From Euglena gracilis (Eukaryota): DNA of 64,000 bases. The stretch spans positions 45,053,847 to 45,117,846 of the forward strand of contig CP154954.1 of the NCBI GenBank assembly GCA_039621445.1. The letters are read 5' to 3'. Shown one piece after another: positions 3,317-63,985 of this stretch; the first letter of the stretch is position 1; each line of letters opens with the position of its first letter. Below the pieces are notes generated by a model. It worked only from the letters and a program-made list of their open reading frames with translations, was not told the origin of the DNA and did no database searches. Position numbers and translations under genes: made by a program.

Positions 3317-6300
3317 CCACAGCGCTCCCCCGTGCCGTGTAGTGAGGTTGTGTGGTAAGGTGTGGTTTTGTAAATGGCTTCATTGTCACACAAAAAAAAT
3401 GTATCATATCCGCTGGCACCCCCCCCCTGAGCATCCCCCCCCAGTCAGAGGACATTTTTCTGGAGGCCCGGCACAACGCACCAGGCCGAAAAAAAATTTG
3501 CGTCCGGAAAATAAACCATACAAGGAGTCTCAAAAAAAAAAACTGGAAACATTTCTCCTGGCGATATTGGGGGCCATTATATGCAAAGAAGGCCAAACCA
3601 TGGAGGTCGAAATGGTGAGAACAAGGGGGGGCGCAAATTGGCCAGCCTGGACGCCCCTGCGCCCACCCTATCTCCAACGTGTGCTAACCTTTGTACACAG
3701 ACCGGGGGGGCAGGGCAAAAAAACACAAACACGTTTTTTTTCTGTTTTTCGATTTTGGAATTTATGTAATTTGTTGACCCAAAAATGCACAAAATGAAAA
3801 AAAATTGACAAAAATTGGTCTTTGGGGAAAAATACATCAATAAATCAAAACAAGAAATTTTTCAGTGCAAAATGAAAAATTTGCTAAATTTTTTTATAAA
3901 TCTTCTCCGCTAAAAAGTGTACTTCACAGGAAAGTTCCCAAAGAATTTTACATGCAATTTACGGTGTTGTGTTATTTTCCGTTTTATTTGCAGCTCACTT
4001 GCGCTTTTTTGCGCCAAATAAAAATCGGGTTCCCGTCTGTGCTTGTCAATTTGGCCGAAGCCTACTCGCCGGGGGGGGGGGGGTGAGGGAGTTGCCCGGC
4101 ACAGACGGGGGAGCTTCACCCCCTCCTCCAGTCCGGCCCAAAGGCTGGACTGGAGGAGGGGGACCACCCATGTTTGATACGCATGAACGCGGGTTGGCCC
4201 CCCGTCCGTCGGCGCGCCGGATGGCCCCGCGCTGTGCGGATGACCTTCGCCGCGCCCCAGCCCCCGCCCCCGCCCCTCCCCTCTCCCCCGGCCGCCCAGA
4301 GGGGCCCCCGGGGTCCCGGCGTTGGGGGATGGGCGAGGAGGCTTCCCCCGGAACCCGAGATTGTTTTGGTTTAACAATCAAACAGGAGGCCAAGGAGAAA
4401 GGAAGCAAGGTGCATTCCCTCAGGGTTGGATCCAAGGGACTTTTTAAGCCAGACCCCACCCCTGAAAGGTCCAACCAACCTGCACCTTTTTCCCCCAGCA
4501 GCTCCCAGCCAGGCCACAGCCCCCCCCCCCCCCCCCCCGAGTAAAGGTCTGGCAGTCCGGCAGAGCTAGGGTTGGACCAAAAAAAATTGGCATTTTGCCA
4601 AGAGAAGGTGCCGAAAATGGCTTTTTTTGGCTGTTTTTTTTTGAGGGTTTTCCTCTCAAAATTTTGGATGAAACAGTCCAACATTTGGGCTCTTTCGCCT
4701 GTTTTTCAGGCTTCAGCAACGGCAGCCGGCTGGACCCACCCACCTGGCCCCTCACCCCTTGGGGGATTCCTGCCACCATTTTTTTTTTCAAGCCAGCTGG
4801 CTGCCCCCCTCCCCCGCCCCCGTACTTAAAAAATTCTTTGGGGATGCCCACCCTGCAGTGACGGCACTGTGTGGCACTGCCGGGCCGTTCAACCCACACG
4901 CAACCACCTTCAATGATGCAGCGCGATGCAGGGCTTTTTTGGTCATTGTTTGACATTTCTAGCCCGAAGTGGTCAAATTGGCCCAAAAAAGCAAGAAGTT
5001 GCGCAAAATGACCAGAATTGCCGTGACAGCCCGAGAAAGCCAATGGTGCAAAAACAAGTGGTTTAACGGCCCACAGTGCCATGCGGTGTCACGCAGTGCC
5101 ATGCGGTGTCACGCAGTGCCATGCGGTGTCACGCAGTGCCATGCGGTGTCACGCAGTGCCATGCGGTGTCACGCAGTGCCACGCAGTGCCCACGCAGTGC
5201 CGCATGCAGTGCCACACAGTGCACACGGGCATCCCCTCTGGTTGGATCTATCCATTCATTTAACCCCTGTGTGACCCCACCCCCAGGAGGGAGGGGTTCC
5301 ACGGCCAGCCCCACTGGGCCAGAGACCTCCAGCAGGGAATTGTGCACTTCAGCTTGGAGAACAGAACCCTCATAAATTGAAAAGCTGCAAACTGCATGAA
5401 ACCTTGGGGTTGGCAATAGGCCACAGATACGGCAAAATTGGAAGCTGCATGGGCTGAGCGATTTAGAGTGGTGGCACTGGCTAGTCGACCTACCGGTTGG
5501 TTGGTTGGCCGACCACGATTCGACCAACTGGTCGGTGGGGAACTGGCCAGTTGGCCAACCAGTCGACTGACCAGCCACTCTAATGCACCAAAAGGGGGTC
5601 ACCCTTTGTTTCCAAACTGCCCAAGGGCCCCAGGCCCGAACTTGAGGCTCTGTGGGGGACAGGGTTTGAGTTATGTTCAGGCTCCGGGGGGGGGGGGGCA
5701 GGCCCAAACCACCCCCTCCTCGCCAAGGGTGGTCCAGACCCGGGGGTGGGGGGTCCCAGGACCCACTCCCCAAAAAGCGGTGTCACCTTTTTTTGCCCGA
5801 CAAATGGTCCAAAGTTGCATTTTCAGTCGGTTTTGGGTGAAGTTTTTTTTTACAGCCTGGCGCTCTGCACTGGGCCAAAGATCAGTCACCTGGCCCACAC
5901 TGCTGCGTTGCAGGGACAGGGAGCGTTGATTGGGAGCTTTCCCCGACAGTGGTCAGGCGTGGGGGCCGGCCTGCCGCCCTCCCCAAGGCCCAGCCCCTCC
6001 CCCAGCAGGGAGGGGTGCAGCCCTCCCCTCCCCATGAGGGTTTGTGTCTTTTTAGATCATGGCTCATATGCGGGTTCCGTTGCATGTTTGCACACAAGCA
6101 GTGGGTGTTTTCATGATAGGAGGTTAGGGGAACCATACATCTCTCTAAGGTTTTGCGAACCCCCCCGGGGGGGACGGCCGCAGCCAGCCCCGATTTGGGC
6201 CCAGCCCAGCCGCAGCAGCCCCCTCCCCGGGGGGGGGGGGGTGCTGCTAGCCCTAGCTAGCCAGCCCCTTTTTTGGGGATCCAGCCCAAAATTTTTCGGC

Positions 6301-63200: not shown

Positions 63201-63985
63201 GTGCCCCCCTTGTCGTTGACGCAGCAGGTTGACACAGCAGGTTTGTTGACAATCCCCCATGTCAACTACATTAGCCACAGTTTCTTTGAAATGCGGCCAA
63301 AGCACTTCAAAATTGTGTCGGATCTTCTTTCCAGCCATGGCTTCGAATGTTTTCACCCATGAATTTGGTGATTTTGTGCAATGTGTGAAATCCAATGATG
63401 CAATTGTGGAGACTATTGTTGCTGGTACAATATGAGATGTCCAATGGTACAATTGTGGAGGCAATGGCTTCTGGCTGCTGTTGCTGGTGGTTTTTTGTCA
63501 TGGTACTGTGCCTTTGGCACGGCCTGTCGTTGACACACCGCCCGTGTCAATGACATTTTCCTGGAACTTTGGCGTGTCAACGATGAGGGGGGGGGGGTAT
63601 CAATCCCCAATGATTGAGCTCCAGTAGCTTTCGAAGCGACAACTTGCAGGACACATTGAACACTACCTCCGAAGCACACGCAGCACTGTGTGTGTTGTGT
63701 GTGTGTGTGTGTGTGTGTGTGTGTGTTTGTGCGCGCTGGGTGTTGTGTTGTTCTTTTGTGTGCGGGTGGGTGGGTGGGTGTTGTGGTGTGGGGATGGGGG
63801 TGCAGGTCCCTCTCTGTGGGGGACGTATGCAAAGCTGGCACAGGCGTACTACCTGAAGGGGGACACCGCCTCCGCGCTGGCGGTGTGTCAGAAGGCGCTG
63901 GATATCCGCCTGGCGGCCCTCGGGGAGTACCACGAGGACGTCGCCCTGACATACGAGCAGATGGGGACGGCCGCCGCCGCCGCCT
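57214..63985 (+). CDS. TPR-repeat exons (kinesin-light-chain/TPR_12-like), probably the 3' part of gene 2; continues past the window end
   Basis: Exons 57214-57313, 60211-60333, 60827-61023, 61534-~61650, ~62156-62219, ~62646-62725, 63822-~63985. Protein: GQLPDAARIYQQAMEAQVAVLGARHSSVAVTYAHLATVYEGLGQWDKALEAYRRALQL...ALDIRLAALGEYHEDVALTYEQMG. Confidence 0.85.
57314..60210 (+). other. Non-conventional intron (2.9 kb)
   Basis: GGC-CAGGG..GGCCC...GGGCCGAGCCCTG-GGGGC; restores RRGQLPDA; flanks match 6/8 as a TSD relic. Confidence 0.8.
58687..59226. mobile_element. TIR element with CCCCCCTGAATAGAAGC termini
   Basis: Right end GCTTCTATACAGGGGGG; interior is the reverse complement of parts of 48708-50962. 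Confidence 0.7.
60385..60700. repeat. (CA)n microsatellite inside intron 60334-60826
   Basis: Read directly from the sequence. Confidence 0.95.
62726..63821 (+). other. Non-conventional intron containing a probable hAT transposase relic
   Basis: GCC-CAGGGGGGGGCC...GGTCCCTCTCTG-TGGGG; restores VVGETYAKLAQAY. Confidence 0.8.
62880..63460 (-). pseudogene. Probable hAT-family transposase relic
   Basis: Frameshifted motifs in hAT order: HWTS, FTH..W, RHNF..L..TWGIVNK, VHVVVLHNVF, LMSNDNCELGKFDSALVRSFGHLT; matched by eye only. Confidence 0.45.

Follow-up and report, generated by a model that had tools for sequence, protein, structure and literature searches.

Spacer lengths of nonconventional introns and the 8-bp duplications of CAG-ended elements in one Euglena gracilis genomic window

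We analysed 64,000 nucleotides of G+C-rich nuclear DNA from Euglena gracilis (contig CP154954.1; this whole stretch is called the window and its first letter is position 1), in which a gene coding for ankyrin and TPR repeats runs on the forward strand from 32692 past the right end. The sites mapped in this gene are standard euglenid nonconventional introns, cut 3 nt before and 5 nt after a pair of complementary triplets. The same window holds free MITEs (miniature transposable elements with inverted repeats) with CAG...CTG ends and 8-bp target site duplications (TSDs). The sum of the two intron spacers equals the length of these duplications, and the eight bases before the left triplet of an intron resemble the eight bases after its right triplet more than expected. 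We consider it fairly probable that a substantial share of nonconventional introns began as insertions of CAG-ended transposons which duplicate 8 bp of their target, and which we call hAT-like. Overall, this is an incremental insight that supports the transposon-origin hypothesis already in print, and it supports in part the interpretation given in a preliminary description of this DNA.

Introduction

For about 30 years there has been no settled account of how euglenid nonconventional introns arose, and Euglena agilis has about 466,000 of them. To our knowledge, the MITE origin proposed since 2013 has been put forward with no transposon named, no length of the duplication given and no free copies shown. 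The CAG at +4 to +6, the CTG at -8 to -6, the junctions' direct repeats and the proposed MITE origin have all been in print since 2013 (Milanowski et al., 2014; PMC3935182). Knock-ins led in 2025 to the code 5'-N3CDG-/-CH'GN5-6|R (Nomura et al., 2025; PMC12501133): the donor spacer of 3 nt allows no alteration, the acceptor spacer measures 5 nt with 6 tolerated, and fully synthetic hairpin introns of 50 bp built to the code are spliced. The 3+5 geometry, which the preliminary description set out as a rule, was thus already published and experimentally proven (PMC12501133; PMC3935182).

A review of 2024 mentions "TSD-like sequences" at the junctions together with a MITE origin, a pyrimidine|purine consensus at both intron ends, and the release of excised introns as circular RNAs with complete ends (PMC11282704). 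The direct repeats of eight nucleotides at a recently gained gapC intron of E. agilis ACOI 323 were ascribed to double-strand-break repair (Milanowski et al., 2016; PMC4770533). The main texts of these four papers neither link the spacer sum to a duplication length nor name a superfamily; "TSD" and "hAT" are absent from the main text of PMC12501133, and "8 bp" and "hAT" from that of PMC11282704. Our literature search, with supplements and subscription papers (e.g., the 2021 circular-RNA paper) outside its reach, found no statement tying Euglena nonconventional introns to an 8-bp TSD or to hAT. The 8-bp-duplicated CAG-ended elements in the same DNA and the register-8 excess at the junctions were not found in print and appear to be new, and so does the equality of the spacer sum and the duplication of co-resident CAG-ended MITEs, as added support for the published hypothesis.

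Results

One gene with 20 nonconventional introns

A search of a protein collection with the translated exon 60829-61023 returned a 100% identical match in the eukprot protein EG_transcript_3304 (P0001), which has 813 residues and, going by the EG in its name and by the intron type, is a product of the E. gracilis transcriptome. Residues 1-711 of this protein are collinear with the forward strand from 32692 to 63969, as traced by exact 5-residue seeds and tblastn. Because a single protein maps in order over this interval, the ankyrin stretch (33-41 kb) and the TPR stretch (57-64 kb) belong to one transcript-supported gene, and not to the two genes that had been described between 33 and 64 kb. 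Pfam searches of single exons support the TPR repeats and, weakly, the ankyrin repeats, and the TPR profile positions run on unbroken across the join at intron 60334-60826.

For every pair of neighbouring exons we collected all donor/acceptor pairs whose spliced translation reproduces EG_transcript_3304 around the join; the support for the 20 introns is therefore at the level of a transcriptome-derived protein. The introns are listed below with their terminal triplets and the identity of their junction 8-mers (x/8).

32692-64000, forward strand: gene with ankyrin repeats (N-terminus) and TPR repeats (C-terminus), 21 exons in the window, continuing past the right end
32744-33591, forward strand: intron 1, 3+5, CAA/TTG (outside the published code), 2/8, one of four protein-consistent solutions
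33677-34313, forward strand: intron 2, CAG/CTG, 13-bp perfect terminal helix, 6/8, exact in the preliminary description
34396-34672, forward strand: intron 3, CAG/CTG, 4/8
34807-35734, forward strand: intron 4, CAG/CTG, 4/8, 71 bp of its interior (86%) common with element 25782-26289
35884-36150, forward strand: intron 5, CGG/CCG, 4/8
36259-36722, forward strand: intron 6, CAG/CTG, single solution (non-slidable), 2/8
36820-36934, forward strand: intron 7, CGG/CTG, 5/8
37011-37335, forward strand: intron 8, CAG/CTG, 4/8, one allelic residue difference allowed
37393-38082, forward strand: intron 9, 3+5 to CCA/TGG (4+6 to an inner CAG/CTG), 4/8
38179-38840, forward strand: intron 10, CAA/TTG, 5/8
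38903-39691, forward strand: intron 11, CGC/GCG, 4/8
39765-39881, forward strand: intron 12, CAG/CTG, 117 bp, 4/8
40053-40576, forward strand: intron 13, CGG/CCG, 3+5, 4/8, superseding 40057-40295
40667-57231, forward strand: intron 14, 16,565 bp, CAC/GTG, 5/8, A+T-richer than the rest, holding MITE 52631-53158
57314-60210, forward strand: intron 15, CAG/CTG, 6/8
60334-60826, forward strand: intron 16, CAG/CTG, 6/8
61024-61533, forward strand: intron 17, GAG/CTC, 3/8
61664-62175, forward strand: intron 18, CAC/GTG, single solution, 2/8, interior modules of G-run/TCCGGA/C-run as in the MITEs
62220-62648, forward strand: intron 19, CAG/CTG, 3+6, 2/8
62726-63821, forward strand: intron 20, CAG/CTG, 5/8

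GT/GC-AG ends are possible in none of the 20 introns, whichever junction solution is chosen. An allowed solution with complementary triplets at +4 to +6 and -8 to -6 exists in 19 of them, so that the transcript-supported junctions follow the 3+5 positions which the preliminary description had predicted; the sole exception is intron 62220-62648 with 3+6 (extra length 9). As introns 36259-36722 and 61664-62175 permit only one junction each, their offsets are fixed directly. The first base of the downstream exon is a purine in 19/20 introns, and pairing continues beyond the triplets (complementary bases stand at 8 to 16 of the first 20 positions, with perfect runs up to 13). In the lack of GT-AG ends, the CAG/CTG or CGG/CCG triplets at these positions, the further pairing, the spacers of 3 and 5(-6) nt, the downstream purine and the short junction repeats, the introns agree with the euglenid nonconventional introns as described in PMC3935182 and PMC12501133.

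The published code, taken strictly (CDG at +4 to +6, complementary CH'G and then 5-6 nt), fits 13/20 introns, 12 with N5 and one with N6, compared to 61.2% reported for E. agilis. The fitting triplets are CAG/CTG in ten introns (one of them with N6), CGG/CCG in two and CGG/CTG in one. Unlike the published code, the remaining seven introns (starting at 32744, 37393, 38179, 38903, 40667, 61024 and 61664) have other complementary triplets at the same 3+5 positions: CAA/TTG and CAC/GTG twice each, and CGC/GCG, GAG/CTC and CCA/TGG once each. Because these seven transcript-supported introns keep 3+5 with triplets outside the code, the splicing code may be wider in E. gracilis than the knock-ins defined.

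All 14 sites named in the preliminary description have the arrangement NNN-triplet...complementary triplet-NNNNN. Ten of them lie in the gene, and nine of these (33677, 34396, 34807, 35884, 39765, 57314, 60334, 61024 and 62726) had exact coordinates, i.e., they are among the protein-consistent solutions. The tenth, 40057-40295, was wrong, since the protein resumes at 40577 and not at 40296; the real intron is 40053-40576. A further ten introns of the gene had been missed.

The window differs from EG_transcript_3304 by single residues (T/A, N/T, R/H, T/K and P/L among others) in exons at 35.8, 37.0, 38.1, 38.8 and 60.2 kb. These differences suggest that the window and the sequenced transcript represent different alleles, strains or close paralogues. 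A Logan-derived protein of 196 aa (P0002, 96% identity) spans 60769-61356, running from the exon straight into intron 17, and is the product of an unspliced or genomic contig from the same locus.

Free elements with 8-bp duplications

The window was scanned for inverted repeats with flanking direct repeats and the ends of the elements were read, other registers and other end triplets serving as controls. Nine elements with 8-bp flanking direct repeats were found, of which six have perfect repeats (8/8) and three have repeats of 7/8. Their ends are exactly CAG...CTG in 6/9, one base off in 2/9 and CAT...ATG in 1/9; TIR in the list stands for terminal inverted repeat, and no strand is assigned.

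24429-24881: family 1 MITE, 453 bp, TIR start CAGGGATAGATG, duplication CCCTGCAC 8/8
52631-53158: family 1 MITE, 528 bp, 19-bp perfect TIR, duplication 7/8 (AGCCGGCC / AGCCAGCC)
11651-12482: family 1 MITE, 832 bp, left end CAC (one change), duplication GCTCCAGG 8/8
29044-29552: MITE, 509 bp, 16-bp perfect TIR with start CAGGGAATTTCT, duplication GTCCGAGG 8/8
20395-21047: MITE-like element, 653 bp, TIR start CAGACC (19/20 complementary), duplication GTCCCAGT 8/8, just upstream of an FG-GAP exon
6134-6599: MITE-like element, 466 bp, CAT...ATG ends, duplication AGGGGAAC 8/8
7148-8419: element, 1272 bp, CAG...TTG ends, duplication ACCACAGC 8/8, formerly described as intron 7145-8424
25782-26289: weaker candidate element, 508 bp, arms 10/12, duplication 7/8
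10449-10512: weak candidate element, 64 bp, arms 10/12, duplication 7/8

When the three family 1 copies (24429, 52631 and 11651) are aligned, their similarity ends exactly outside CAG/CTG and the 8-mer differs from copy to copy, which is the picture that target duplication by transposition leaves. Among the 167 CAG...CTG pairs of the window with at least 9/10 arm complementarity, perfect flanking repeats of 8 bp occur in three, of 7 bp in one, and of 5, 6, 9, 10 or 11 bp in none, so that more than one perfect flanking repeat is seen at no length other than 8. In the window, no perfect 8-bp flanking repeat came from the end triplets CTG, GAC, CAC, CCG, TAG and CGG; CAT gave one at 8 (the 6134 element), and GGG/CCC gave low-complexity matches at every length. 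The abundance of free MITEs with CAG...CTG ends and 8-bp TSDs, which the preliminary description had claimed, is thus confirmed by the nine elements and by the controls for end triplet and length. The single 8/8 case among its proposed introns (7145) may, in turn, simply be a free MITE.

Four elements have perfect TIR runs of 11-19 bp. Counted over 20 positions, complementarity is 13-19 in 8/9 elements and 10 in the 10449 candidate. A purine stands at the would-be exon start in 7/9 elements in the forward orientation and likewise in 7/9 in the reverse orientation. Intron interiors and MITEs have stretches of 63-71 bp in common at 79-86% identity. A palindromic module of a G-run, TCCGGA or similar and a C-run has 14 matches against 0.48 expected and is found in free MITEs as well as in intron 18 (positions 6482, 11719, 24474, 52676-52769, 61827 and 62111); it seems to be a unit that Euglena repeats have in common.

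Two further observations concern the elements as such. CCAG occupies positions 4-7 in 4/9 of the duplicated 8-mers (elements 7148, 10449, 11651 and 20395), which suggests a target preference resembling the element's own end. Elements 6134-6599 and 29044-29552 differ in their outermost 8-10 bases (CATAC... and CAGGG...), but close to the right end their subterminal sequences are alike; the two may represent related families whose tips have diverged.

Likeness of the junction 8-mers

In register n, the n bases before the left triplet are compared with the n bases after the right triplet of the same intron. As the null, left and right flanks of different introns were paired, which keeps the position-specific composition. 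The 8-mer identities of the preliminary description were reproduced: 8/8 for 7145, 6/8 for 33677, 57314 and 60334, 5/8 for 5359 and 4/8 for 34807, with 2/8 for 18996 and 3/8 for 61024. Taken together, its 14 sites give 66/112 matches in register 8 against 43.3 under the null (sd 4.5, z 5.0), a value reached by 0/20000 permutations, and 58/104 against 40.5 (z 4.4) when the 8/8 case is left out; all other registers from 3 to 16 have z from -0.2 to 2.3.

The excess of 8-mer identity that a duplication would leave behind was also found in the 20 protein-supported introns, with permuted intron pairs as the control: register 8 gives 81/160 against 63.9 (z 3.45, p 0.0006), and registers 4-7 and 9-16 have z between -0.4 and 1.7. 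The excess persists after re-anchoring of intron 9 (p 0.0012) and without the two irregular introns (p 0.0028). All eight positions are at or above expectation, and both halves contribute, the exon end against N5 with p 0.010 and N3 against the exon start with p 0.006. The signal is carried by the 12 introns with code triplets and N5 (54/96 against 42.3, p 0.002). Eight is therefore the only length to stand out among the registers that could be duplication lengths, and the earlier expectation of a best length of 8 holds to this extent; it is qualified by register 3, which is equally strong.

In register 3, the N3 spacer is set against the three bases that follow the right triplet; the likeness extends over all three positions and is not explicable as an 8-bp duplication. 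The bases at -2/+2 of the paired triplets are identical in 14/20 introns and form a Watson-Crick pair in 3 (7.7 expected), and the likeness in this register may be due to a constraint that keeps the spacers unpaired. An outward extension of the hairpin into the spacers was tried as a cause and rejected, as there are 9 pairs at +/-1 against 10.2 expected, and 3 at +/-2 against 7.7; a 5-nt periodicity of the flanks was likewise rejected as not significant. Judged by eye, the 8-mers of the free MITEs have no register-3 likeness.

Discussion

A possible route from transposon to intron

In the published mechanism, the terminal inverted repeats form an RNA hairpin that is recognised and flanked by two cuts, 3 nt ahead of it and 5 nt behind it; the exons are then joined, and the intron leaves in circular form (PMC12501133, PMC11282704). 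Our proposal places a DNA insertion before these steps. Small non-autonomous DNA transposons whose inverted repeats start with CAG would insert and duplicate 8 bp of the target, and a CAG-ended element that has landed in an exon would meet the published splicing code once it is transcribed. In the pre-mRNA it would fold into a hairpin, usually of CAG...CTG and further pairs, to be cut by a non-spliceosomal machinery. Because CAG...CTG reads alike on both strands, an exonic insertion could be spliced in either orientation. Since 3 + 5 = 8, removal of the element together with 3 nt on one side and 5 nt on the other would take away exactly one copy of the duplication and would restore the message as it was before the insertion. 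The insertion would be born as a harmless intron, and the likeness of the junctions in register 8 may be the decayed remnant of the target duplication.

Several of our results weigh against this origin and should be set beside the evidence for it. The data come from one gene in one 64-kb window with junctions at the protein level. The best junction identity in the gene is 6/8, and the excess amounts to no more than some 0.85 match per intron. A weak signal is seen in the 11 introns not given correctly in the preliminary description (39/88 against 32.7, p 0.044), and in the 8 introns with non-code triplets or N6 the signal is absent (27/64 against 23.4, p 0.13). The rise of junction identity with TIR length, which had been expected, was seen only as a weak correlation with TIR complementarity among the introns (rho 0.39, p 0.09). 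Neither a full-length copy of a MITE nor one of another intron was found among the gene's introns in the window. No transposase domain was detected in the 28 large open reading frames (ORFs) of the window, and the target consensus of Buster elements, nnnTAnnn (PMC3517528), has its TA at positions 4-5 in 0/9 of the duplicated 8-mers. Finally, register 3 gives 39/60 against 28.1 (z 3.9), a signal as strong as that of register 8. It follows that some process other than target duplication also couples the flanks, and the register-8 excess is good but not clean evidence.

The reading of the intron geometry as a TSD footprint can be upheld as regards the 3+5 offsets in 19/20 introns, the co-resident elements with 8-bp duplications and the register-8 excess, and it is weakened by register 3 and by the ceiling of 6/8. 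The preliminary description went further and saw in the intron consensus a domesticated hAT end structure. The 8-bp duplication, the short TIRs and the CAG start agree with hAT; no transposase was seen in the 28 large ORFs, and the Buster consensus is missing. "Domesticated" is not borne out by the gene's introns, none of which is a full-length MITE copy and whose best identity is 6/8.

Superfamily and rival explanations

Duplications of 8 bp and TIRs of 5-27 bp are the basis on which MITEs are assigned to hAT (PMC3517528, PMC3942097), and the elements of the window have both. A bona fide hAT MITE, Mar of Drosophila willistoni, has TIRs that start with CAG(G/A)G (PMC3517528), and several window elements start with CAGGG. 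They resemble Mar, as it is described there, in the 8-bp duplication, the short TIRs (12-19 bp perfect), the non-coding sequence and the length of a few hundred bp. Unlike hAT MITEs, they are without the Buster target consensus, and their interiors are G+C-rich with palindromes of G-runs and C-runs, not A+T-rich. The label hAT-like, drawn from TSD length, short TIRs and the CAG start, seems reasonable, and the superfamily is not established by it. A presumed likeness of the family 1 TIR to the terminal repeat of maize Ac was not confirmed and is not used as evidence. It could be that the transposon origin is right and that the elements belong to another superfamily with 8-bp duplications, be it Merlin, a P-like one or an undescribed group. 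We find this somewhat unlikely, although it has points in its favour: for E. gracilis, Merlin elements that duplicate 8 bp have been described (PMC8101967), our literature search for hAT elements in Euglena gave no report of them and returned only this Merlin survey, no hAT transposase was seen here, and the target 8-mers do not fit the Buster consensus, as said above. However, Merlin TIRs begin with 5'-GG and their duplications are 8-9 bp long according to the same survey (PMC8101967), whereas the TIRs of the window begin with CAG or CAT and the homology of the family ends exactly there, and the traits shared with Mar are those of a bona fide hAT MITE.

One could argue that the equality of the two lengths is a coincidence: an RNA-cutting enzyme acting on the hairpin with a 2-nt stagger would set 3+5, the MITEs would be unrelated, and the junction likeness would come from constraints on the cleavage sites. 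Both junctions indeed have a population-level pattern, with C before the cut and R-N-C after it, and a pyrimidine|purine consensus has been published for the two ends (PMC11282704); the equally strong register 3 is not a duplication footprint, and the gene introns are all at 6/8 or below. On the other hand, register 8 exceeds a null that keeps composition (p 0.0006) while the nearby registers 4-7 and 9-14 do not, the literature has one recently gained intron in which exactly eight nucleotides are repeated (PMC4770533), and a chance agreement of spacer sum and TSD length has by our estimate a probability of roughly 1 in 8 or less. Coincidence is thus unlikely in our judgement. The same gapC intron of E. 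agilis ACOI 323, with the eight-nucleotide junction repeats that our model predicts for a young insertion, is compared here by description only; its authors read the repeats as footprints of the repair of staggered double-strand breaks with filler DNA, unlike our transposon reading (Milanowski et al., 2016; PMC4770533). Break repair gives no reason for a constant footprint of 8 bp that is in register with CAG/CTG ends, and a family whose three copies have identical ends but differ in their 8-bp flanks speaks for true transposition with a specific length of 8; as a general source of these introns it is therefore improbable. Least of all do we believe in the reverse direction, in which the free elements would derive from introns that returned to the genome after excision. 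The circular RNAs with complete ends that excision leaves (PMC11282704) would suit such a return, but a re-inserted intron would bring its own N3/N5 spacers, and the three family copies have unrelated 8-mers duplicated on both sides.

Comparison with introners and implications

The origin from 8-bp-duplicating transposons that we prefer has its closest parallel in the introner elements of Micromonas, dinoflagellates and Fritillaria, as reviewed in PMC11282704. There, a non-autonomous transposon with TIRs and a TSD is an intron from birth and the TSD aids its exact removal, and we propose likewise for Euglena. The difference lies in the machinery: introners rely on the spliceosome, with splice sites from the element and the duplication, whereas in Euglena fixed offsets from an RNA hairpin would remove the whole duplication length and the introns leave as circles. 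The introner hallmark of near-identical intronic copies in unrelated genes was not found in the window, where only short modules are common. Of the other introner features, TIRs are present at the intron borders; of a duplication there is only the register-8 excess in the statistics, at no more than 6/8 in the mapped gene.

We also put forward, tentatively and with doubts that outweigh our confidence, that the non-spliceosomal removal of introns in euglenids is an RNA-level excision tuned to one class of DNA transposons, with offsets that sum to the 8-bp duplication, so that a CAG-ended MITE in an exon would be silent from birth in either orientation. If true, this would explain why about 70% of Euglena introns are nonconventional, and with the cuts staggered by 2 nt, one would think of a nuclease specific for double-stranded RNA, followed by ligation. 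If the 8-bp match holds genome-wide, the transposon-origin hypothesis becomes quantitative and testable with existing data, and the match would account for the junction repeats ("slidable" introns), the strain-specific gains and the strictly fixed donor-side offsets. A non-spliceosomal case would then be added to the known transposon routes to introns. If the 8-bp match fails, 3+5 remains simply the known splicing code.

Other features of the window

Besides the gene described above, the left third of the window has three candidate sites:

5359-5657, forward strand: candidate intron by structure only, 5/8, coding and transcript evidence none found
18996-19346, forward strand: candidate intron by structure only, 2/8, coding and transcript evidence none found
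21203-21551, forward strand: candidate intron in a putative FG-GAP-repeat gene, CAG/CTG, 3+5, 5/8

Protein searches of the left 22 kb found no transcript that includes the sites 5359, 7145, 18996 and 21203, and the protein signature in this region is confined to one exon pair with FG-GAP repeats around 21203-21551, which makes the latter a plausible candidate intron. Pfam FG-GAP_3 matches 21027-21200 on the forward strand (E 1.9e-4), and a weak FG-GAP repeat match lies at 14367-14954 on the same strand (E 0.004); both are below the curated cut-off and point to a putative second gene in the left third of the window. A word-indexed protein search with exon 21060-21200 gave no match. A full HMMER search with the FG-GAP exon gave relatives of at most 63% identity, mostly 40-57%, and tblastn of the seven best gave none at E 1e-4. 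The MITE 20395-21047 was considered as an intron before the FG-GAP exon and rejected, as the upstream frame is open for 23 codons only and the sequence looks non-coding. The proline-rich ORF beside the 7145 element found only low-complexity bacterial matches in a protein search.

Long microsatellite tracts of GT/CA type and TATG type lie at 15.9-18.5 kb and 28.5-30.4 kb, and they give rise to many spurious repeat matches and, at 16-18 kb, to an extreme skew of GC and AT.

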